This document shows, piece after piece, positions 2,871-60,577 of a DNA stretch of 60,577 bases. Numbering within the stretch: position 1 is the stretch's first letter; the number at the start of each line of letters is the position of its first letter. The notes under the pieces were generated by a model. That model was not told where the DNA came from, ran no database searches, and saw only the letters and a list, made by a program, of their open reading frames with translations. The stretch is from an uncultured Thermomicrobiales bacterium (GTDB taxonomy: Bacteria; Chloroflexota; Chloroflexia; Thermomicrobiales; UBA6265), in assembly GCA_902806345.1 (NCBI GenBank), contig CADCWF010000296.1:1-60577 (forward strand), in the 5' to 3' direction. Position numbers and translations under genes: made by a program.

Positions 2871-3138
2871 CGCCTCCCCTCTCCCGTCTTTCGACGTCGC
2901 CCGCCGCGACGGGGCAAGCCGGGCAGCACGCCGACGAGCGATGGTTGGGCTTCGAGCCTCTGCTCTGAGGGAGACGGCAACCCTCGCCGTCTGTCGTACC
3001 ATCCCCGGTCGGAGCCGGCTCGGCAAGGGCCGCACCCGGCAGACCGCTCCGATCGACGTGCCACGGGGCCGGTACGGGGCAGACCGGACCGACGTTGCGC
3101 GGTCTCGGTTCGGCCGCTCGGCCCTGCGGGAGGCGAAC

Positions 3139-3516
3139 GTGACCGAGACGGTCGGCGACGGCGGGCCGCATGGCGAGCGCCTCCACCCGGCCAGGGTCGG
3201 GTCGCCCCGGCTCGAAGGCGCTGAATTGGCGGCGCTTGCCGCCGAGATCCCAGAGTGGCGGGTGGTCGCGGAGGACGGCGTCGAGCGTCTCGAGCGGACC
3301 TTCCGGATGCCGTCCTACCGGGCTGCGCTCGGATTCACGCTCGCCGTCGGCCGCCTCGCCGAGGCCGCCGACCACCACCCCGCGATCCTGACCGAGTTCG
3401 GCCGGGTCACGGTCCGCTGGTGGACGTGGACGGTCCGCGGGCTGCACCGCAACGACATCGTCATGGCCGCCAAGACCGACCGCCTCTTCGAGGCTCGGCA
3501 ATGGGAGGCGGGGTAG
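3139..3516 (+). CDS. Pterin-4-alpha-carbinolamine dehydratase
   Basis: AEAADHHP and W-T-x-x-x-x-GLHRNDIVMAAK motifs; GTG start after GGAGG. Confidence 0.85.
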   Translation: MTETVGDGGPHGERLHPARVGSPRLEGAELAALAAEIPEWRVVAEDGVERLERTFRMPSYRAALGFTLAVGRLAEAADHHPAILTEFGRVTVRWWTWTVRGLHRNDIVMAAKTDRLFEARQWEAG

Positions 3517-3537
3517 TGGTCGTGGTTCGACACCGCC

Positions 3538-4131
3538 CTACGCCTCGTCGTCGGTCGGGAGGTCAGCGCCGACGAAGAGCGCCGAGACGGGGAATTTCGC
3601 CGCCGCCGGCAGCAGCGACGACCGCACCGGGTCGACGCCCGAGGCCGTCTGGTGGCCGCGGAGGGCGTCGCCGTCGAGGACGAGGATCTCGAGCGCGCGC
3701 GCCTCGGGGTCGACAATCCAGTACTCGCGGACGCCGGCGCGGGCGTAGAGGGCCGGCTTGCTCAGCAGGTCGTGGCCGCGGTTCGACGGGCTGAGCACTT
3801 CAATCACGAGGTCGGGAGGCCCCTGAACGCCACGCCGCACCGGCTTGGCCCGCCCCCCGGAGAGCAGGACGACGATGTCCGGTTGGACGGGGTCCGCCCC
3901 GGGAAAGAAGACATCGAGCGACGCGGTCCGGATCAACCCGCCGAGCGCCTGGACGATCGGCCCCAGGAGCAGCATCAGGTTGGCAATAACGGTCGCGTGG
4001 GCCCAGGCCGGCGCCGGCGTCTCGTAGAGCACCCCCTCGATGATCTCGTAGCGCTTGCCGTCGTCGGGCAGGGCCAGGAGGTCGTCGTAGGTCCAGGTGC
4101 CGGGGGCCGGGGTCGGTCGGACGAGCGCCAT
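3538..4131 (-). CDS. Uma2 family endonuclease
   Basis: WTYDDLLALPDDGKRYEIIEG, QPD, PDLVIEVLSPS, YARAGVREYWIVDP. Confidence 0.92.
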   Translation of the reverse strand: MALVRPTPAPGTWTYDDLLALPDDGKRYEIIEGVLYETPAPAWAHATVIANLMLLLGPIVQALGGLIRTASLDVFFPGADPVQPDIVVLLSGGRAKPVRRGVQGPPDLVIEVLSPSNRGHDLLSKPALYARAGVREYWIVDPEARALEILVLDGDALRGHQTASGVDPVRSSLLPAAAKFPVSALFVGADLPTDDEA

Positions 4132-4172
4132 CGGGCATCCCTCCTCAGTGTGGCCGGGAGTCTAGCAGCGAC

Positions 4173-29219: not shown

Positions 29220-29284
29220 GCCCTCACCCCCCTGCCGCCACCTGCTCCGCGGGTACCCGGCCCGATGCGCGGGAGAGGGGGAGA
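29220..29284 (+). repeat. REP-like repeat family A, long variant
   Basis: The 30-bp block 29244-29273 is identical to the reverse complement of 56456-56485. Confidence 0.75.
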
Positions 29285-29405
29285 GCTGGCCTCGCCGCCT
29301 CGATTGCGTCCCGATCCCCGACCCTGTCGGGCGCGGCGGGAGCCGGGGGGCGGGTTCCGACCGCACCGTCGCGTGGTACGGAGGTCGGTGCTTGTTGTGC
29401 TTGAC

Positions 29406-29438
29406 CCCACCCAATCGGTAACGGCATCGTTGGGTGGG
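29406..29438 (+). promoter_or_regulatory. Hairpin covering the translation-initiation region of crcB
   Basis: CCCACCCAA (29406-29414) pairs with TTGGGTGGG (29430-29438), 5 nt before the GTG start. Confidence 0.45.
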
Positions 29439-29443
29439 CGGCG

Positions 29444-29818
29444 GTGACGGCCGTCGTCTGGGTCGCGCTCGGGGGGGCGCTGGGGTCGGTTGCCCGCTAC
29501 GGCGTCTCGCTGATCGGCGCCCGCCTCGGCGCCGCCTTCGCGCTGCCGACGTTCGCCGTCAACGTCACCGGCTCGTTCGCCATCGGCCTCGCCATGGCGC
29601 TGCTGCTGGGGCGGGCGGCGGACCCCGCCTGGCGGTTCTTCCTCGTGACCGGGTTCCTCGGCGGCTACACCACCTTCAGCACCTTCGCCTTCGACGCCCT
29701 CCGCCTGACCCACGAGGGCCGCCCGGCCCAGGCGGCCCTGTACGTCGTCGGCACGACTGTGGTCGGGTTGCTGGCGTGCGCCGCTGGCGTCGCGCTTGGC
29801 CGTCTGCTGGCCCGCTAA
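29444..29818 (+). CDS. crcB: Fluoride channel Fluc/CrcB
   Basis: GGALGSVARY, TFAVNVTGSF, TGFLGGYTTFSTF. Confidence 0.95.
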   Translation: MTAVVWVALGGALGSVARYGVSLIGARLGAAFALPTFAVNVTGSFAIGLAMALLLGRAADPAWRFFLVTGFLGGYTTFSTFAFDALRLTHEGRPAQAALYVVGTTVVGLLACAAGVALGRLLAR

Positions 29819-30254
29819 CGAGGCCGGGAGACGGGAAGACTCGTCGAGAGGCAAGCAGGCACCCGCGCTCACCGACCCGTGACGACGGTTGCCCCCTTCG
29901 TTATCTCGCACCAGACATCCAACCGATGCGGAATCCGGCGGGACGGGTCCGGTATCCGGGGCCGGGCCCTCGCCCTACTCGGGGACCCGACCGCCGCCCG
30001 TTCCGCGGGCACCCGGCCTGACGCGCGGTTCCCCGAGCTGAGCGGGGGCTCGTGCCGACCTGCGAGCAGAAGCATCCAAGCGGATGTCGCATGAACGATC
30101 CCGCGTGGGCGAGTGCCATGCGGCATGGGGCAGCAATCGGAGCCGGAGTGGGCGTGTCCGTAGGGCCGGGCGAACGACCATCGACCGTCGGCTCGGACAG
30201 ACGGCAAACCGGGCGGTCGCTCTCTGGCCTGGCGACTTGGGGCCGAACGCCGCT

Positions 30255-51590: not shown

Positions 51591-52187
51591 ATGCCCGATA
51601 TCGTCACCGTCGGCGGCAGCCCGGCCAGCCCATCGCGCTGCGCCACCACCCTCGGCCACGTCCGCCGATCCATGGCCGGACGCGGCTTCACCACCGACGC
51701 GGTCGAGGTCCGCGACCTCGATGCCCAGGGGCTGGTCTGGGCCAGCTTCGACGAGCCGACCATCCGCACCGCCATCGACGCCGTCCAGGAGGCCCGCGCC
51801 CTAGTCGTCGCCACCCCCGTCTACAAGGCCGCCTACTCCGGCGTCCTCAAGCTGTTCCTCGACCTCCTGCCGCCCGGCTCGCTCGCCGACAAACCGGTCC
51901 TGCCGGTGACGACGGCCGGCTCGCTGGCCCACTGCCTGGCGCTCGATTACGCGCTCAAGCCGGTGCTCGCCGCGCTCGGCGCCCGCCACATCCTGCAGGG
52001 CGTCTGCCTGCTCGACTCCGACTTCGAGTACGGCCCGGACGGCGCCGTCGTCGCCCTCAACCCCGCCTCCGCCGAGCGGCTGCACCAGGCGATCGACGCC
52101 CTCGCCCAGCCGCTCGGCAAGCCGCACCCCCAGCCCCAGTCCGACCCCCTGGCCCCCGTCGCGATCCTCGAGGAGGTCCCGGCATGA
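51591..52187 (+). CDS. ssuE: NADPH-dependent FMN reductase
   Basis: GSP...SR, ATPVYKAAYSGVLKLFLD, LDYALKPVL. Confidence 0.92.
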   Translation: MPDIVTVGGSPASPSRCATTLGHVRRSMAGRGFTTDAVEVRDLDAQGLVWASFDEPTIRTAIDAVQEARALVVATPVYKAAYSGVLKLFLDLLPPGSLADKPVLPVTTAGSLAHCLALDYALKPVLAALGARHILQGVCLLDSDFEYGPDGAVVALNPASAERLHQAIDALAQPLGKPHPQPQSDPLAPVAILEEVPA

Positions 52188-53179
52188 CGCTCGCGTCCCG
52201 TTCCCTCTCCCGCCGTTCGACCCTGCTCGCCGTCGCCGCCGCCCTGGCCGCGTCCGCGGCGCCCCCGCTTGCCCGCCCTAGCGGCGCCCAGGGGGGCGGC
52301 AAGCTGCGGGTCGGCTTCCAGAAGGGCTCGGCCAGCCTGCTGGTGCTGAAGTCGCAGTCGGCCCTCGAGGAGAAACTGGCCCCGCTCGGCTACTCCGTCT
52401 CCTGGGCCGAGTTCACCTCCGGGCCGCCGCTGCTGGAGGCGCTCAACGCCGGCAGCCTCGACTTCGGCAGCACCGGGGCCCCGCCCCCGATCTTCGCCCA
52501 GGCCGCCGGCGCCGACCTCGTCTACGCCCTGGCCGCCAAGCCCTCCCCCCGGACCCAGGCGATCGTCGTCCCCGAAGGCTCCGCGATCGCCACCCCGGCC
52601 GACCTCGCCGGCAAGCAGGTGGCGGTCGCCAAGGGGTCGAGCGCCCACGCCCTCCTGATCTGGGCGCTGCGCTCGGCCGGGCTCGACTGGGACGCCGTCG
52701 AGCCGGTCTACCTGCAGCCGGCCGACGCCAAGGCCGCCTTCGAGGGCGGCGACGTCGCCGCCTGGTCGATCTGGGATCCCTACTACGCCGCCGAGGAGGC
52801 GGCCACCGGCGCCCGCACCCTGATCACCGACGAGGTCGCCGGCGCCCCCAACCGCTCCTTCTACCTGGCCGCCCGCCCCTTCGCCGAGGGTCACGCCGAG
52901 GCGCTCGCGGTCGTCCGCGACGCCCTGGTCGAGACAGACGGCTGGGCGGCGGGGCACCCGGCCGAGGTGGCGGACATGCTCGCCGAGCAGACCGGCCTCG
53001 ACGCCGCCGTCCTCCGCACCGTCGAGGCCCGCCGTGCCTACGGCCTGGAACCGGTGACGGCGGCGATCATCGCCGACCAGCAGGCGTTGGCCGACGTCTT
53101 CTTCGAGCTGGAGCTGATCCCGGAGCGGATCGACGTGTCGTCCGCCTTCGTCGAGCTGCCGGAGCCGGCGCAGGTCTGA
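52184..53179 (+). CDS. ssuA: Aliphatic sulfonate ABC substrate-binding protein
   Basis: LRVGFQK, EFTSGPPLLEAL, PPIFAQAAG, KGSSAH, WSIWDPY; ATGA overlap with ssuE. Confidence 0.93.
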   Translation: MTLASRSLSRRSTLLAVAAALAASAAPPLARPSGAQGGGKLRVGFQKGSASLLVLKSQSALEEKLAPLGYSVSWAEFTSGPPLLEALNAGSLDFGSTGAPPPIFAQAAGADLVYALAAKPSPRTQAIVVPEGSAIATPADLAGKQVAVAKGSSAHALLIWALRSAGLDWDAVEPVYLQPADAKAAFEGGDVAAWSIWDPYYAAEEAATGARTLITDEVAGAPNRSFYLAARPFAEGHAEALAVVRDALVETDGWAAGHPAEVADMLAEQTGLDAAVLRTVEARRAYGLEPVTAAIIADQQALADVFFELELIPERIDVSSAFVELPEPAQV

Positions 53180-53188
53180 GCCAGGGTT

Positions 53189-53400
53189 CCCTCACCCCCC
53201 GCCCCCTCTTCCGCTGCGGCAGGAGAGGGGGAACCAGCCCCGTACGATCGCTCCCATTGCGAAACCTGCCCTTGTCGGGGTGTTGCGGGAGAGAGGGAAT
53301 CCCGGGTGATTGCCGCCAATCGCCAGTGGCCGGCGGACCTGAAGGCGGCGGACCGTGCTCCCCTCTCCAGCCGCGGCTGGAGAGGGGCTGGGGGTGAGGG
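53189..53400. repeat. Inverted pair of family A repeats between ssuA and ssuD
   Basis: CCCTCACCCCCC...GGAGAGGGGG and CCCCTCTCC...GGGGGTGAGGG. Confidence 0.75.
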
Positions 53401-53470
53401 AGTCTCGGCCGCAACCGCCCCCTGAACCCAACATCCACACAACACTTGAACGAAGGAGTACCTACCCACC

Positions 53471-54655
53471 ATGACCCCCACCGCCGAAACCACCGACGTC
53501 TTCTGGTTCATCCCGACCCACGGCGACGGCCGCTACCTCGGCGCGGCAGAGGCCGGCCGCAGCACGAGCCTGGCCTACATGCGGCAGATCGCCCAGGCCG
53601 CCGACGACCTCGGCTACGGCGGCGTCCTGCTGCCGACCGGCGCCTCCTGCGAGGACGCCTGGCTGGTCGCCTCCGCCCTGATCCCCGCCACCAGGCGGCT
53701 GAAGTTCCTGGTCGCGATCCGGCCGGGGTTGATGTCGCCGACGCTGGCCGCCCGAATGACCGCCACGTTCGACCGCCTCTCGGAGGGGCGGCTCCTGATC
53801 AACGTCGTCACCGGCGGCGACCCGGTCGAGCTGGCTGCCGACGGCCTCCACCTCGACCACGACACCCGCTACGACCTGACCGACGAGTTCCTCTCCGTAT
53901 GGCGGCAGGTGCTGGCCGGCGAGACGGTCACCCTCCACGGCGAGCACCTGACCATCGACGGCGCCCGGATGCTGATCCCCGGCGTCCAGAAGCCCCACCC
54001 GCCGCTCTACTTCGGCGGCTCCTCGCCGGCGGCCCAGGCCGTCGCCGCCCGCCACGTCGACCTCTACCTGACCTGGGGCGAGCCGCCGGCCCTCGTCGCC
54101 GAAAAGATCGCCAGCGTCCGCGCCCGCGCCGAGGAGGAGGGGCGGCAGATGCGCTTCGGCCTCCGCCTCCACGTGATCGTCCGCGAGACGGAGGGCGAGG
54201 CCTGGGAGGACGCCGAGCGGCTGATCTCCCGGCTCGACGAGGCGACCGTCGCCCGCGCCCAGGCCGTCTTCGCCCGGATGGACTCCCATGGCCAGGCGCG
54301 GATGCGGCGCCTTCACGGCGGCAGCCGCGAGCAACTGGAGATCAGCCCGAACCTGTGGGCCGGCGTCGGCCTGGTCCGCGGCGGCGCCGGCACCGCCCTC
54401 GTCGGCGACCCGGAGACGGTCGAGGCCCGGATGCGGGAGTACATGGACCTCGGGATCGACACGTTCATCCTCAGCGGCTACCCCCACCTGGAGGAGGCCT
54501 ACCGCTTCGCCGAGCTGATGTTCCCCCGCCTCGGCGTCGTCCCGGCCGGGGTCGGCGAGGCCACCGACGCCTTCTCGACCGTCTTCGGCACCGGCCGCGG
54601 CGAGTTCGTCGGGCACCTGGAGCGGCCGTTGGCGGGCGCCCGGGTGGCGGGCTGA
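53471..54655 (+). CDS. ssuD: FMNH2-dependent alkanesulfonate monooxygenase
   Basis: [53 protein letters not shown]. Confidence 0.96.
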
Positions 54656-54658
54656 TCG

Positions 54659-55465
54659 ATGGCGACCCTGCGCCTTTCCCCCTCCCCCGCTCGGCCGACC
54701 GACCCCGCCGCCACACTGGTGCCGTGGTTGGTGCCGGCGCTGGTCCTCCTGCTCTGGCAGGTGCTCGCGGCGAACGAGATCATCCCGCCCCGGATGCTGC
54801 CCGCCCCGCTCGCGGTCGGCCAGGCGGCGGCCGAGATGGCGGCCGAGGGCAAGCTGGTGCCGCACGTGCTGGCCAGCGCCCAGCGGGCCCTGCTGGGGTT
54901 CGCCATCGGCGGCGGTCTCGGCTTCCTGCTCGGTCTGGCCAACGGCTCCTTCGCCTGGAGCGGCCGCCTCCTCGACTCCAGCATGCAGATGCTGCGGACG
55001 ATCCCCCACCTGGCGCTGATCCCGCTGGTCATCCTCTGGTTCGGCATCGGCGAGACGGCGCGCGTCTTCCTGGTCGCCCTGGGGGTCCTCTTCCCGGTCT
55101 ACCTGAACACCTACCACGGGGTCCGCACCGTCGACGCCGGGCTGCTGGAGATGGCTCGCAACTACGGCCTCTCCCGCTGGCAGACCTTTCGCCAGGTGAT
55201 CCTGCCGGGGGCGCTGCCCTCGATCCTGGTCGGGGTCCGCTACGCGCTGGGGATCATGTGGCTGACGCTGATCGTGGCCGAGACGATCGCCGCCTCGTCC
55301 GGCATCGGCAAGGTGACGATGGACGCCCGCGAGTTCCTCCAGACCGACGTCCTGGTCTTCGGCATCCTCCTCTACGCCGGCCTCGGCAAGCTCGCCGATG
55401 TCGCCGCAAAGGGACTGGAGAAGCGGCTGCTGGCTTGGCACCCGAGCTACGTCCGGGCACGGTGA
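54659..55465 (+). CDS. ssuC: Sulfonate ABC permease
   Basis: [36 protein letters not shown]. Confidence 0.95.
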
Positions 55466-55536
55466 GAGTTTTCCGGTCTGTGTCGGCGAACCTGCATGCC
55501 GAAGATCAACCCATCCGACGAAAGGAGACGTCCCCC

Positions 55537-56382
55537 ATGGCCCCCATGGCCCTCGCCGCTCCCCCCCGCCCTGACGCCCCTACCCCCGCCTCCGCAACCC
55601 CGGCCGCCGCCCGCGGCGTCGCCGTGGCAGCCCGCGGCGTCGCCAAGGCGTTCGGTCAGCGCGGCGTCCTCCGGGCGCTCGACCTGGCCGCCGCCCCCGG
55701 GGAGTTCGTCGCCATCGTCGGCCGCTCCGGCTGCGGCAAGTCGACCGTGCTGCGGCTGCTCTCCGGGCTGGAGGGGGCCGACGCCGGGACGCTGACGATC
55801 GACGGCGCGGCCCCTTTCTCCGGCAACCCGCTGGCCCGGATGATGTTCCAGGACGCCCGCCTGCTGCCCTGGCGGTCGGCGGCAGAGAACGTCGCCCTGG
55901 CGGTCGGCGGCGACCGCGCGCGGGCCGCCGCGGCGCTGGCCGAGGTCGGCCTCGGCGACCGCGGTGGCGACTGGCCGGGCGTCCTCTCCGGCGGCCAGAA
56001 GCAGCGGGTGGCGCTGGCCCGCGCCCTCGTCGCCCAGCCCCGCCTGCTGCTCCTCGACGAGCCGCTGGGCGCCCTCGACGCGCTGACCCGGATCGAGATG
56101 CAGGGCCTGATCGAGCGGGTCTGGACGGAGCACGGCTTCACCGCCCTGCTGGTCACCCACGACGTGGCCGAGGCGGTCCGCCTGGCCGACCGCGTCGTCG
56201 TCCTCGACGGCGGCCGGGTCGCCCTCGACCTGGCGGTCGGCCTGCCACGGCCCCGCCACCGCGGCCACCACGTCTTCGGCGAGATCGAGGCGGCGGTGCT
56301 GGACCGGGTGCTCGGCGTCGCCGCCGATCCGGCCGCGCTCCACGAGATCCCCGCCCCCTGCGGACTGGCCCGGACGGCGTAG
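55537..56382 (+). CDS. ssuB: Sulfonate ABC ATP-binding protein
   Basis: [40 protein letters not shown]. Confidence 0.95.
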
Positions 56383-56436
56383 GCAGCCGCTGATACGAAA
56401 ATCGCTTGAATACTTCTGCTTCCGGGTCGGCCAGAG

Positions 56437-56508
56437 CCCCCTCTCTGCTCGGGGACCCGCGCATCGGGCCGGGTACCCGCGGAGCGGGTGGCGGTTGGGG
56501 GTGAGGGC
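56437..56508 (-). repeat. REP-like repeat family A, long variant
   Basis: Near-identical inverted copy of 29220-29273. Confidence 0.75.
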
Positions 56509-56660
56509 GGGCCGTTCGGTACCGTAGTTGTTTACCCGTATTTCGTATGAGAGACCGCGAACGGCGGCTGTCCCTGCCTCCGGCGCGGCGCGGCGCTCCG
56601 TGCCGGAGGCCCCGTCTCGAGACACCCTCCCGATCGAGCCGTCCGCCGAGGAGCAACCCG

Positions 56661-57029
56661 ATGAACGACCGGCGCCAGAGCGACCGCCTGGTGAGTCCCG
56701 ATCGGCTCCATGCCAGACTGGGGTCCGAACCGCCACAGGTGGTCGATGTCCGGAGCGCGGCCGAGTTCGCCGCCGACCACCTGCCCGACGCCGTCCACAT
56801 CCCGCTGGACGAGCTGCCGGCCCGCCTGGGCGAGCTGTCAGCGGGGCAGTCCGTCGTCACCTACTGAGCGATGGGTCACCCCGGTGCATCCCGCAGCGAG
56901 CGGGCCGCCGCGCTGCTCCGTGCGAGCGGCTTCGACGCCAACGCCCTCGCGGGCGGCCTCCCGGCCTGGGAGGCCGCGGGATTGCCGATGGCTCGGGAGG
57001 AGGCCGAGGCCCGCACCGCCGATGGGTGA
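56661..57029 (+). CDS. Single-domain rhodanese with in-frame TGA at the catalytic Cys (candidate selenoprotein, 122 aa, Sec69)
   Basis: GAGGAG RBS; VVDVRSAAEFAADHLPDAVHIP...VVTY-TGA(56865-56867)-AMGHPGASRSERAAALLRASGF...LAGGLPAWEAAGLP, all in one frame. Confidence 0.75.
56883..56909 (+). promoter_or_regulatory. Candidate bacterial SECIS hairpin
   Basis: GGUG/CGCC lower stem, CCCGC/GCGGG upper stem, AGCGA loop 27 nt after the UGA; folded by hand. Confidence 0.45.
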
Positions 57030-57056
57030 CGAGGAGGGCGTGGTCGGCTGCCGACG

Positions 57057-58283
57057 CTACCGCGCTCCCTGCCAGAGCACCAGACCGACCGCGGCGGCGG
57101 CAAGCACAAGGAGGGGCTCCGGCACCTTGAACCGCCAGAGCACGGCCAGGCTGCCGAGGGCGATCGCGGCCGTCGGCAGGTCGTAGATCGCCCGGCCGGC
57201 GAGGACGACCACCGCCCCGGCGATCGCCCCGCTCGCCGCCGCCGTCGCCCCGTCCGAAAAGGCGCGGAGCTGGGCGTTGTGGCGGTGGCGGACGAACCAC
57301 GGCGCGGGGACCACCGTCAGCACCCAGACCGGCAGGAAGATGCCGATCGCGGCCAGGGTCGCGCCCGGCAACCCGGCGACGAGGAACCCGATGAAGGCGA
57401 CCGTGATGACGACCGGCCCCGGGGTGATCATCGCCACCGCGACCGCGTCGAGGAACTGCTGCTCGGTCAGCCAGCCGTACCCTTCGACGACGCCTTGCTG
57501 GAGGAAGGGGACGATCGCCAGGCCGCTGCCGAAGACGAAGGAGCCGGCCTTGGCGAAGAAGAGCAGGATCTCCCAGAGGACGTTCGTGCCGGCCTGGGCG
57601 GCGACGAGCAGCGGGAGGACGAGCACGGCGGGGCTCAGCCCGAGGAACGGCAGGCGGGTCTTGAGCCAGCGCGGCGGCGCCTTGACCACCAGCACGACGA
57701 GCCCGGCGAGGAGGAAGAACTCGGCCAGCTCGGCCTGGGCGAGCGCGGTGACGACGAACAGCAGCGCGAAGACCCCCCACAGCAGGGGGTCGCGCCCGTT
57801 GACCTTGCGGGCCAGTTTGTAGGCGGCGATCGCGATGATCCCGATGACGGCGGCCGAGACGCCGTAGAAGGCGGCCTGCATCCACCAGAGACCGTCGTAG
57901 GCGACGTAGACCGCCGAGACCGCGAGCACCATCAGGAACGAGGGGAGGACGAAGGCGATCCCGGCCAGGGTGGCGCCGAGGACGCCGTGGGCGAAGTAGC
58001 CGATCGCGATCGCGAGCTGGGCGGCGAGCGGCCCCGGCATGATCTGGGCGAGGGCGAGCCCGAGCTTGTACTCCTCGTCGTCGATCCAGCGGCGGCGCTC
58101 GACGAGGTCGCGCTGCATGTAGCCGACGAGGGCAACCGGGCCGCCGAAGCCGACCGTGCCGAGCCGGAGGAAGTAGGCGACGAAGGGCCAGAGGCCGACG
58201 GCGGCCACCGGGCGTGACGCCAGGTTCTCCGCTTCGACGGTCGCTCCCCCGTCGGCGGTTGCGCTCTGGGCGCGGGTAGTCAC
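57057..58283 (-). CDS. chrA: Chromate efflux (CHR family) oxyanion transporter
   Basis: FGGP, AQIMPGP, FGSG, AMITPGP; GTGA overlap with the upstream gene. Confidence 0.93.
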   Translation of the reverse strand: MTTRAQSATADGGATVEAENLASRPVAAVGLWPFVAYFLRLGTVGFGGPVALVGYMQRDLVERRRWIDDEEYKLGLALAQIMPGPLAAQLAIAIGYFAHGVLGATLAGIAFVLPSFLMVLAVSAVYVAYDGLWWMQAAFYGVSAAVIGIIAIAAYKLARKVNGRDPLLWGVFALLFVVTALAQAELAEFFLLAGLVVLVVKAPPRWLKTRLPFLGLSPAVLVLPLLVAAQAGTNVLWEILLFFAKAGSFVFGSGLAIVPFLQQGVVEGYGWLTEQQFLDAVAVAMITPGPVVITVAFIGFLVAGLPGATLAAIGIFLPVWVLTVVPAPWFVRHRHNAQLRAFSDGATAAASGAIAGAVVVLAGRAIYDLPTAAIALGSLAVLWRFKVPEPLLVLAAAAVGLVLWQGAR

Positions 58284-58693
58284 GCCCCCGCGTTCCGTCG
58301 GAGGTCGTCGACCAAGCCTTCGACGTGGCGGCGGATCGCGGCCCGCGCCGCGGCGAGGTCGGCGCTCGCCGGTGGCACGTCGTCCCACCGGTCGATCGCG
58401 CCCCCCGAAGGCAGGAGCGTTCCCGGATCGCAGCCGAGCGAGACAACGCGGGAAGCCGAGGCCAGATCGGCGGCGGTCACCCGCCGCGGGCGGTGCGCCG
58501 AGACATCCACGCCCTCCGCGGCCAGCACCGCGACGACGGCCGCCGAGGGCGCGGCGGCCGGGTCCGTGCCGGCGGTGGCGGCCCGGAGCGGCAGACCCCG
58601 CTCGCGGGCGAGGCGGTCGAACTCGGCGGCGGCGAGCAGGCTCTTGGCCGCGTTGTGCGGGCAGAGGAAGAGGACGGTCCCCGTCGTCGACAC
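58280..58693 (-). CDS. LMW-PTP/ArsC-fold protein with variant P-loop
   Basis: VLFLCPHNAAKS, AGTDP, VVSLGCD, WDDVP. Confidence 0.85.
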   Translation of the reverse strand: MSTTGTVLFLCPHNAAKSLLAAAEFDRLARERGLPLRAATAGTDPAAAPSAAVVAVLAAEGVDVSAHRPRRVTAADLASASRVVSLGCDPGTLLPSGGAIDRWDDVPPASADLAAARAAIRRHVEGLVDDLRRNAGA

Positions 58694-58753
58694 CGAGCCA
58701 CGCTCCCTTCACGGTTCGCCTCGCACCGGGTCCGCACACCGGCAGCACGATTC

Positions 58754-58775
58754 GGTCCAGTATGATAGTGGACAA
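58754..58775. promoter_or_regulatory. Copy of the sulfur-cluster operator in the divergent ArsC-like/yqeB-like spacer
   Basis: GGTCCAG-TATGATA-GTGGACAA. Confidence 0.55.
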
Positions 58776-58797
58776 AGAAGACATCGGGGAGGGCACC

Positions 58798-59600
58798 GTG
58801 CGCGTCGTGGCGCGGGGGCTGGGGGATGTCGGGTCGGCGATGGCCCACCGGCCGTTCGGCGCCGGCCACGCGGTCGTCCTGCACGACGGGCCGCGGCCTC
58901 GCGACAACCTGGCGGCGGACGGCATTCGTCGACGCGGTCGTCGACGGGCAGGCCGAGCTCGCGGGGGTGCGGACCGTCCGGGTCAACGACCCGGAGGCGG
59001 TGCGCTCGGTCATCGCGGCCGGTACCGCCGTGCCAGTGGCCCCTCACGGGTAGCGCGGCACTCCTGGCGTTGGTCCGGCCGGACGTGCTGGTCGACGCCC
59101 GGATGCCCAAGCGGGCGGAGCCGGAGGACGGGCGCGCTCTGGCCGCCAGTGATGGTCGGCCTCGGTCCGGGCTTCGTCGCGGACGGCAATGTCGACATCG
59201 CCGTCGAGACGGGATGGGACGCCTTGGGCGGGATCGTCCGCACCGGGCCGACGCGGCCGTTGGCCGGGGAGCTACGGCCGATCAGCGGCGTCGCCCACGA
59301 CCGCAACGTCCAGGCCCCGGTCGCCGGGATCGTTCGCACCCGGCGGGACGCGGGCGAGCCGGTGCGGGCCAGCGACGGGGTCGCCCGCACCGGCGAGACG
59401 CCCCTCTCGGCCCCGGTCGCCCGCATCCTGGGCGCGATCGTCCGCGACGGGGTGCTTGTGGAGGCGGGAGCCAAGGTGGTCGAGGTCGCCCCCCGCGGCG
59501 CGGCGGAGGTGGCGGGGATCGGCGAGCGGCCGGGCCGGATCGCCGCCGGCGTGCCGGCGGTCGCGCGCGCGTTTGGAGGCGACCGCGGCGGGGCACCGAC
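58798..59600 (+). pseudogene. Frameshifted YqeB-like (selenium-dependent molybdenum hydroxylase accessory) gene
   Basis: VVARGLGDVGSAMAHR; RRTAFVDAV; PDVLVDARMPKR; VGLGPGFVADGNVDIAVET; IGERPGRIAAGV. About three frameshifts (near 58900, 59045, 59145); the end is approximate. Confidence 0.72.
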
Positions 59601-59761
59601 GGTGAACGGTTCCCCGCTGGGAGCTTGCCCCCGGCCCACGGGTGGCTCGGCCCCGCAACGGGATACGCCAGGGATCGGCCAGGCACCCTGGCGAGGCACC
59701 GACCTTTGGGGGGGAGGTCGGGGCGATCGCTCGTGTCCGGACATGCGCCCGCCGCAAGGCC

Positions 59762-59842
59762 TTGCCAACCCGGCCGAGGGCTGGTAGAGTCCGGTTGTCC
59801 ACAAAAACAGTGGAATTAACGGACAAAGTCGGGTTAGTCGGG
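59762..59842 (+). promoter_or_regulatory. Promoter and operator upstream of the sulfate-binding protein
   Basis: TTGCCA-17 bp-TAGAGT; TTGTCCAC-AAAAACA-GTGGA at 59795-59814. Confidence 0.65.
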
Positions 59843-59853
59843 AAGGGGAACAG

Positions 59854-60577
59854 ATGCGCTCGCTCGCCACCACGCCCGCCGCGGCCACCGCCTCGCGGCG
59901 TTCGGTCCTCCGGTTCGCCGCCCTTGGCGCGGCGTCCGTCTCTGCCGCCGGCCTCGGCCTCGCCGCGCCCCGCCGCGCCGCGGCCCAAGACGTCACCCTC
60001 ACCCTCGTCGCCTACTCCACCCCGCGCGAGGCGTACGAGGCGATCATCCCCCTCTTCCAGGCCAGCGAGGGCGGGGCGGGGGTCACTTTCGACCAGTCCT
60101 ACGGCGCCTCCGGCGACCAGTCCCGCGCCGTCGAGGCGGGGCTGCCGGCCGACATCGTCGCCCTTTCGCTGGAGCCCGACGTCACCCGCCTGATCGAGCC
60201 CGGGCTGATCGCCGAGGACTGGAACGCCGGCGAGCACAAGGGGATGGTGACCGACTCCGTCGTCGCCCTCGCCGTCCGCCCCGGCAACCCAAAGGGGATC
60301 GCCGGCTGGGACGACCTCCAGCGCGATGACGTCCAGACGATCACCCCCAACCCGCTCACCTCCGGCGGCGCCCGCTGGAACGTGATGGCCGCCTGGGGCG
60401 CCCAGCTCGAGCAGGGCAAAACCGAGGACGATGCCAAGGCGTATCTGCGCGGTCTCTTCCAACGGGTGCCGGTCCAGGACAAGAGCGCCCGCGAGAGCTT
60501 GCAGACCTTCATCGGCGGTCTCGGCGACGTCCTTCTCGGCTACGAGAACGAGTTCCTCCTGGCGCAGGCCAACGGCG
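59854..60577 (+). CDS. sbp: Sulfate ABC substrate-binding protein, truncated by the window edge
   Basis: Manual translation: SRRSVLRF Tat motif, LVAYSTPREAY, SYGASGDQSRAV, GNPKGI, TPNPLTSGGARWN, YENE. Confidence 0.92.
   Translation, partial: MRSLATTPAAATASRRSVLRFAALGAASVSAAGLGLAAPRRAAAQDVTLTLVAYSTPREAYEAIIPLFQASEGGAGVTFDQSYGASGDQSRAVEAGLPADIVALSLEPDVTRLIEPGLIAEDWNAGEHKGMVTDSVVALAVRPGNPKGIAGWDDLQRDDVQTITPNPLTSGGARWNVMAAWGAQLEQGKTEDDAKAYLRGLFQRVPVQDKSARESLQTFIGGLGDVLLGYENEFLLAQANG

Follow-up and report, generated by a model that had tools for sequence, protein, structure and literature searches.

A rhodanese gene of an uncultured Thermomicrobiales bacterium, split in public annotation at an in-frame UGA, is a probable selenoprotein gene with an enlarged active-site loop

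Introduction

Rhodanese-like proteins containing selenocysteine (Sec, U) have been reported, as an earlier note on the DNA studied here had stated, and five forms are tabulated in a 2026 review (PMC13188914): form 1 with the motif UxxS, form 2 with UxxG, form 3 with CxU (NF041203), form 4 again with UxxG, and form 5, TsoB. The table row for form 4 reads only 'rhodanese-related sulfurtransferase' and cites reference 59 of the review (PMC13188914). A rhodanese-related sulfurtransferase selenoprotein appears under COG2897 in a 2005 paper on the Sargasso Sea, and form 4 is here taken as that family. An earlier classification of the Sec-rhodaneses is given in a 2022 review (PMC9312934).

Here we describe a rhodanese gene with an in-frame TGA located in a 60,577-nt stretch of DNA, hereafter called the window, which is contig CADCWF010000296.1 (C296) of the genome assembly GCA_902806345.1 from an uncultured Thermomicrobiales bacterium. 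Judged by the entries of the 2026 table, the predicted product resembles forms 1, 2 and 4 in having a rhodanese domain, a UGA-encoded Sec and a motif beginning with U, but ten of the 11 Sec forms of its family show neither UxxG nor UxxS, a comparison that covers the listed motifs only. The window family may be identical to form 1, 2 or 4. Compared to the two modelled families of Sec-containing rhodaneses it scored far below the cut-offs, with 33.3 bits against NF041203 (CxU type, cut-off 115), where the Sec lies two residues after the Cys position and not at the Cys position itself, and 23.9 bits against NF045694 (TsoB rhodanese/DsbD selenoprotein, cut-off 805). None of the NCBIfam selenoprotein models covers the window gene, and our literature searches located no paper on a long-loop rhodanese family with the motif U-N-M-x-H.

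By genomic context, the nearest named family is ChrE (NF033833), which is likewise a small single-domain rhodanese adjoining chrA and which was the joint-best NCBIfam match. The window product is nevertheless not a member (41.7 bits, cut-off 120); it has Sec in place of Cys, and relatives are found beside PiT-type transporters about as often as beside ChrA. The fold and the position of the catalytic residue are the same as in GlpE, PspE and the rhodanese domains of persulfide-dioxygenase fusions (3tp9, 5ve3), but these have Cys and lack the four extra loop residues, and the score against the GlpE model was 34.6 bits (cut-off 102). In rhodanese-fold enzymes of the Cdc25 and Acr2 type, a longer, Arg-bearing CX5R loop shifts the substrate from sulfur to an oxyanion. 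The loop of the window product is longer still, with eight residues between U and R, whereas its sequence similarity is to rhodaneses of the sulfurtransferase type. The gene is filed here as a new addition to a known class, the Sec-rhodaneses.

Gene layout and read-through product

The sequence and its translation define a 122-codon rhodanese gene whose sole interruption is a TGA at codon 69 (Table 1). The earlier note had observed that the frame continues for 53 codons beyond the open reading frame (ORF) ending at 56867, and this was confirmed: after the TAC-TGA at 56862-56867 the frame is open for 53 codons up to the terminal TGA at 57027-57029. The ATG at 56661 is the protein start in three gene calls of public collections, and in the public annotation the gene is split into a 68-residue stub and an uncalled tail. 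The source assembly comprises 5.08 Mb in 377 contigs, with a G+C content of 71%, an estimated completeness of 90% and a contamination of 2.7%.

The spacer between the upstream ABC-ATPase gene and the rhodanese gene holds a dispersed repeat, for which blastn gave 33 additional genomic matches; six of these span 146-160 bp with 85-87% identity. Two of the further matches lie inside the window, at about 29220-30082, and many metagenome contigs stack on the core of the repeat. A search of 56300-56700 with Rfam at a permissive threshold returned no match. Contigs from an RNA run (X11) were considered as a sign of rhodanese expression and dropped; they are confined to 56942-57237, are of unknown strand and overlap the 3' end of chrA.

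Table 1 Features of the window and of related loci. Positions without a prefix are those of the window; C numbers are other contigs of the same genome and L numbers are loci on other contigs.
Feature	Position	Strand	Remarks
Dispersed repeat, about 160 bp	56390..56548	.	spacer between the ABC-ATPase gene (end 56382) and the rhodanese gene
Probable ribosome-binding site GAGGAG	56648..56653	+	7 nt ahead of ATG 56661; read from the sequence
Putative Sec-rhodanese gene	56661..57029	+	122 codons and terminal TGA; predicted Sec is codon 69
UGA, predicted selenocysteine U69	56865..56867	+	catalytic-Cys position; aligned codon is TGA in 10 other loci and TGC in 12
Enlarged active-site loop U-A-M-G-H-P-G-A-S-R-S	56865..56897	+	four-residue insertion compared to 3tp9 and 3iwh
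Hairpin 1 (of the earlier note)	56890..56904	+	5-bp stem, 5-nt AGCGA loop, 27 nt after the UGA, -8.2 kcal/mol
Hairpin 2, candidate SECIS	56912..56930	+	7-bp stem, CGUGC loop starting 51 nt after the UGA, -10.2 kcal/mol
chrA-family anion transporter gene	57057..58279	-	Pfam Chromate_transp E 3.2e-79, two domains; start between about 58184 and 58279
Low-molecular-weight phosphatase / ArsC-like gene	58280..58693	-	Pfam LMWPc E 1.6e-10; directly upstream of chrA
selB-like genes	C47:434-1522; C324:434-1486		both above the curated cut-off; only the second beside selA
selD and two formate-dehydrogenase-like genes with TGA	C105:16718-17650; C276:36699-37484; C343:13169-13915	-; +; -
Second Sec-rhodanese candidate, L092	C206:4221-4523	+	...SCA-TGA-PDE..., TGA two residues after Cys (CxU)
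PadR and rhodanese in a single open frame, Cys forms	L046 2584-3321; L068 2491-3285

Rhodanese domain and active-site loop

When read through the TGA, residues 12-106 of the product aligned with positions 1-102 of the 102-position Pfam Rhodanese profile (PF00581; E 2.6e-17), at 63.6 bits compared to a gathering threshold of 22.2, while the ORF ending at 56867 reached profile positions 1-67 only. The C-terminus that the earlier note had described as intact is thus matched to the end of the profile. The TGA codon aligned with the catalytic Cys, both in solved rhodaneses and in the Cys-containing homologues, so that the single interruption lies at the active-site Cys, where the note had placed it.

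Its observation that the active-site loop is longer than the usual CxxGxRS also held: the loop exceeds those of 3tp9 and 3iwh by four residues, and the window product is in this respect not of the short-loop kind seen in solved sulfurtransferase rhodaneses. Residues M71, H73, S77, R78 and S79 are invariant in the family alignment (A1). The start of the loop reads U-N-M-x-H in nine of the 11 Sec forms, U-S-M-R-H in one (L051) and U-A-M-G-H in the window, and the motif of the family is U-N-M-x-H-x-G-x-S-R-S-E-R.

A structural model was generated with AlphaFold2 from a family alignment of 30 sequences, giving a mean pLDDT of 88.2 (83 for the loop block) and a pTM of 0.80. The best structural match of the model was the rhodanese domain of 3tp9 (TM 0.77, rmsd 1.2 Å over 103 columns, 40% identity); single-domain rhodaneses ranked next. 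The Cdc25-like yeast homologue 3fs5 was distant and ranked 30th among the structural matches.

TGA and TGC forms across the family

The identity of codon 69 was read directly in metagenome and genome contigs scanned with the family alignment, and an additional search of 400 genomes of the phylum contributed one TGA form (L074, in genome G281) and nine TGC forms (L075, L076-L082 and L084). Homologues with both codons were found, as the earlier note had proposed to look for. Besides the window gene, ten loci have TGA at the aligned position (L045, L047, L048, L049, L051, L052, L053, L054, L067 and L074) and 12 distinct loci with DNA have TGC (L050, L068, L073, L075, L076-L082 and L084), where L046, L066 and L073 are one DNA and were counted once. 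Three further loci from the phylum search (L083, L085 and L086) fit no motif pattern and were left out of these counts. Across the 11 TGA and 12 TGC forms, no other stop codon and no other residue was seen at this position.

The ten other TGA orthologues are 38-72% identical and come from other contigs. In all 11 Sec forms the frame after the TGA is open for 43-57 codons, reaching the normal C-terminus of the family, and the mean pairwise protein identity between Sec forms is 0.72 after the TGA compared to 0.52 before it. Codon differences after the TGA comprise 810 synonymous and 607 non-synonymous ones among the Sec forms; beyond the TGA, the sequence is constrained at the protein level. Unlike hairpin 1 (see below), the sharing of the TGA and the conservation of the frame downstream of it are above chance.

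Assembled contigs from public biocrust and soil metagenome runs (X1 and X4) span the TGA site. In run X1, a 953-nt contig shows five base differences and one insertion relative to the window, with the TGA unchanged, and the single change after the TGA (at 56885) is synonymous. A 165-nt contig of X4 spans the TGA, 15 nt from the contig end, without a difference there; the figures for runs X4 and X5 were the same, and the two may be a single data set. The earlier note had named reads with TGC as evidence against its interpretation, and these independent assemblies, as assembled contigs, carry TGA. The window gene was also used as a query against five genomes of the same genus (70-95% complete), which yielded distant rhodanese matches but no orthologue.

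A TGC-to-TGA nonsense change in an ordinary Cys-rhodanese gene, raised as a caveat in the earlier note, would require a single base change in a family where Cys forms are common, and the hairpin proposed there as a Sec signal is not above chance. This pseudogene reading is countered by the conservation after the TGA and is close to refuted: the aligned codon is TGA in ten other loci at the identities given above, none of the TGA forms has a further stop or frameshift in the open stretch after it, the tail is more conserved than the head, and the strain variants retain both the TGA and an identical tail. Two other genomes with Sec forms were tested, G281 and G437 (the latter holding L067), and both have selA and tRNA-Sec above the cut-offs. 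The shared TGA, the conserved tail, the Sec-competent genomes and the contigs from other runs together rule out that the TGA arose by a recent nonsense mutation or through an error of assembly, and the pseudogene reading as a whole is highly improbable.

Searching 5.8 billion proteins recovered long-loop Cys forms known as proteins only (P0004-P0006, 60-64% identical), as well as a cluster of fragments ending at the TGA. These are three distinct 68-residue proteins, found in the window, in another assembly collection and on a Logan contig, which share the same end point. The 52-residue tail is recorded as an identical ORF on three contigs, and two remoter tails (80% and 76% identical) begin at a Met two residues past the site, as is expected where a stop precedes. 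This Met, encoded by an ATG two codons past the TGA in all forms, and the calling of the tail as a separate ORF by gene callers could speak for real termination, giving a functional 68-residue stub, possibly together with a 52-residue piece restarted at ATG 56871. The Met is, however, equally invariant in the Cys forms and is therefore part of the loop motif and no start marker. Neither of the two pieces would contain the catalytic residue, and in the structural model the split would fall between the central strand of the fold and the loop, which leaves real termination with very little credibility compared to a continuous product.

A representative library contains a 115-residue relative of L052 and L053 (P0155) with W recorded at the Sec position; it is evidently another hidden TGA form, called under a code in which TGA is W. 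One candidate was rejected: the best relative in a search of 41 genomes (G024, 1.9e-22), flagged with one TGA, has Cys at the site, and the TGA is its terminal stop.

In the family tree, nine of the 11 Cys forms with DNA fall into a separate clade, and only L068 and L073 are placed among the Sec forms. The base of the tree is unresolved; the best tree involves 3-4 changes between Sec and Cys, of which the well-supported branches force only one.

Selenocysteine machinery and other selenoprotein genes

The earlier note had named selA, selB, selD and tRNA-Sec as genes to look for, and all are present in the source genome above curated cut-offs. The tRNA-Sec scored 65 bits (gathering threshold 47) and was called SeC(tca) by ARAGORN, selA scored 464.6 bits and selD, which has its own in-frame TGA, 346.2 bits. 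Two selB-like genes were found (336.6 and 285.7 bits), the second of which adjoins selA. An additional N-terminal piece of selA lies at the end of contig C7. The doubled selB and the selA piece may reflect paralogy, strain mixture or the 2.7% contamination.

Further candidate selenoprotein genes are encoded elsewhere in the genome (Table 1). The two formate-dehydrogenase-like genes have their TGA in the classical ...ARI-U-HSS... context, followed after 18 nt by a hairpin whose loop reads GGUCU, and a GUG-loop hairpin lies 33 nt beyond the TGA of selD. A second rhodanese candidate, cut by the end of its contig, scored 81.5 bits against NF041203 (cut-off 115); judged from its motif it does fit the catalogued CxU type, unlike the window gene. 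By sequence, the genome thus has at least five candidate selenoprotein genes.

Decoding of the UGA by a near-cognate tRNA, with insertion of Trp, Cys or Gly, would also give a full-length product; the SECIS of the window gene is only a candidate, and the gene call of P0155 shows W at this position. Against this reading, the terminal stop is also TGA in the window gene and in five of the ten other Sec forms, so TGA is a working stop here and a local signal would be needed for read-through. Only Cys alternates with TGA among the homologues, and Sec and Cys are the usual alternating pair. As the Sec machinery is moreover present in all three Sec-form genomes tested, we regard read-through with an amino acid other than Sec as very unlikely.

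The shared TGA, the pairing with Cys, the constrained tail, the machinery and the other selenoprotein genes of the genome all argue for a selenoprotein gene and not a pseudogene. Comparative evidence of this kind strongly indicates that UGA-69 encodes Sec, and we consider it very probable that the locus forms a single gene encoding a single-domain rhodanese of 122 residues, with codon 69 decoded as Sec by the SelA, SelB, SelD and tRNA-Sec of the genome.

Hairpins downstream of the UGA

The consensus bacterial SECIS (bSECIS) has a stem of at least 4 bp, a loop of 3-9 nt with a G in the first two loop positions, a distance of 16-37 nt from the UGA and a folding energy of -7.5 kcal/mol or lower (PMC13188914). 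The hairpin that the earlier note had described 27 nt downstream and read as a SECIS does exist (hairpin 1, Table 1), and can be extended to 56882-56910 at -15.5 kcal/mol, but as a SECIS it was not discriminating. It satisfies the letter of the bSECIS model, as do 514 of 2999 random positions in this 71% G+C genome (17%), and 13.7% of the random positions were as good as hairpin 1 itself. Over the 71 nt after the UGA, folding was no more stable than in shuffled sequences (z -0.09). Covariation supporting hairpin 1 was not detected, with 77.0% of cells paired compared to 76.8% in shuffles and 273 of 500 shuffles as high. Hairpins within 16-37 nt were equally good in Cys forms (mean -8.3 kcal/mol, compared to -7.5 kcal/mol in Sec forms; p 0.62). 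Hairpin 1 is thus neither above chance nor specific to Sec forms, and was given little weight.

A second hairpin further downstream is the better SECIS candidate. With an energy of -7.5 kcal/mol or lower and a G in the first two loop positions, hairpin 2 is found in nine of the 11 Sec forms compared to one of the 11 Cys forms, with a background of 12% at random genome positions. The mean energies are -8.85 kcal/mol for Sec and -3.14 kcal/mol for Cys forms (p 0.004), although the sequences are related and nine of the 11 Cys forms are a separate clade, so the contrast is perhaps partly inheritance. Paired cells amount to 85.7% compared to 79.7% in shuffles (6 of 500 as high), and two pairs are changed on both sides. 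At codons +14 to +22 the synonymous-codon identity among Sec forms is 60%, compared to 34-42% elsewhere in the Sec forms and 37.5% at the same codons in the Cys forms. In most Sec forms the loop has a G followed by U or G at positions 2-3, G-U in the window, similar to the formate-dehydrogenase and selD elements of the genome. On the other hand, the bSECIS model allows 16-37 nt, and hairpin 2 is 51 nt from the UGA; together with the relatedness of the sequences, this makes it a candidate and not an established SECIS. RNAalifold gave only a weak consensus for ten Sec sequences (-11.5 kcal/mol), and Rfam at a permissive threshold gave no match in 56500-57200. An extension of hairpin 2 by a lower stem (alignment columns 49-53 with 83-87) was rejected, with just 62% of cells paired. 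If the UGA is decoded as Sec, SelB would be bound by a signal inside the 65 nt after it, for which hairpin 2 is the best-supported element.

Gene neighbourhood and possible function

The rhodanese gene and chrA are convergent, with a 27-nt gap, and are therefore not one operon in the window. The low-molecular-weight phosphatase / ArsC-like gene upstream of chrA has a P-loop that reads C-P-H-N-A-A-K-S; Arg is usual in this family at the position of the Lys. A sulfonate-utilisation-like cluster (52001-56382) lies directly upstream on the same strand as the rhodanese gene and encodes an NMT1-type solute-binding protein, a luciferase-like monooxygenase, an ABC permease and an ABC ATPase.

Similar neighbours recur in other loci. 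Among the 11 Sec loci, ChrA is adjacent in four (the window, L049, L067 and L074), a PiT/PHO4-family transporter in two (L052 and L053), and a PadR-type regulator is encoded directly upstream in four (L052, L053, L067 and L074); in L067 a TauE/SafE exporter is found farther upstream. The chrA of L067 is represented by two overlapping ORFs (2981-3967 and 3727-4167), which may result from a frameshift or from a ChrA made up of two genes. Five of the 11 Sec loci, mostly on short contigs, have no transporter or PadR neighbour, and PadR was not found among ORFs of at least 100 aa in 52001-60577 of the window. In the Cys loci scanned, PHO4 adjoins the rhodanese gene in L068 and L079, ChrA in L076 and a luciferase-like monooxygenase in L050 and L076.

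Among the carriers of the PiT and ChrA families are transporters of sulfate and chromate, and thiosulfate is split by rhodaneses, leaving sulfite and a sulfane sulfur in bound form. The recurrence beside ChrA- and PiT-type transporters and PadR suggests a role in handling or sensing oxyanions: the adjacent transporter would carry a sulfur, selenium or chromium oxyanion, which the rhodanese would process or sense. As a processing or sensing partner of this kind the enzyme is a tentative proposal, resting on its neighbourhood and the chemistry of its family. Mechanistically, a selenolate would stand in for the catalytic thiolate at the base of a loop rich in Arg and His and four residues longer than usual, and could accept sulfane sulfur (or selenium) from an anionic donor, e.g. 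thiosulfate, with release of sulfite. Such selenolate chemistry with an anionic donor is possible, though somewhat doubtful.

The domain could alternatively be mainly a sensing module for a PadR-type repressor, reporting sulfane sulfur, selenium or oxidant stress to the transporter genes, and not a metabolic sulfurtransferase. Apart from the PadR genes directly upstream in four Sec loci, PadR and the rhodanese are encoded by a single open frame in two Cys forms (L046 and L068), and two proteins of 226 and 236 residues (P0089 and P0159) have a long N-terminal extension ahead of the rhodanese that resembles such a PadR-plus-rhodanese frame by eye. These frames of about 226-265 residues suggest, by their sequences, a regulator with a built-in rhodanese sensor. 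The window copy has no PadR nearby, however, and other Cys forms (L050, L079 and L081) are fused N-terminally to DinB_2/DUF1706, which suggests a portable catalytic module. We consider a mainly sensory function rather unlikely.

A more far-reaching reading combines these elements: a sixth family of Sec-rhodaneses, defined by the motif U-N-M-x-H-x-G-x-S-R-S-E-R, which would use a SelB hairpin at about 51 nt that model searches miss, and whose loop would serve thiosulfate, selenite or chromate moved by ChrA or PiT transporters under PadR control. In this complete form it is speculative, and we consider it unlikely that all of its parts apply.

Conclusions

The window gene is a solid, unannotated selenoprotein candidate with an unusual active-site loop and possibly an unusual SECIS spacing, in a class already known to specialists. 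It is recorded publicly as a 68-residue fragment, and at least ten relatives are likewise recorded as fragments or are uncalled, i.e. selenoproteins lost to annotation. Since it is covered by none of the NCBIfam selenoprotein models, a family model would recover the gene in Chloroflexota-like genomes from soil and biocrust. Should the distal hairpin be the SECIS, search programs would need a wider spacing rule. The Sec/Cys pairs of one family beside anion transporters would offer a clean system for studying the benefit of selenium to a sulfurtransferase.
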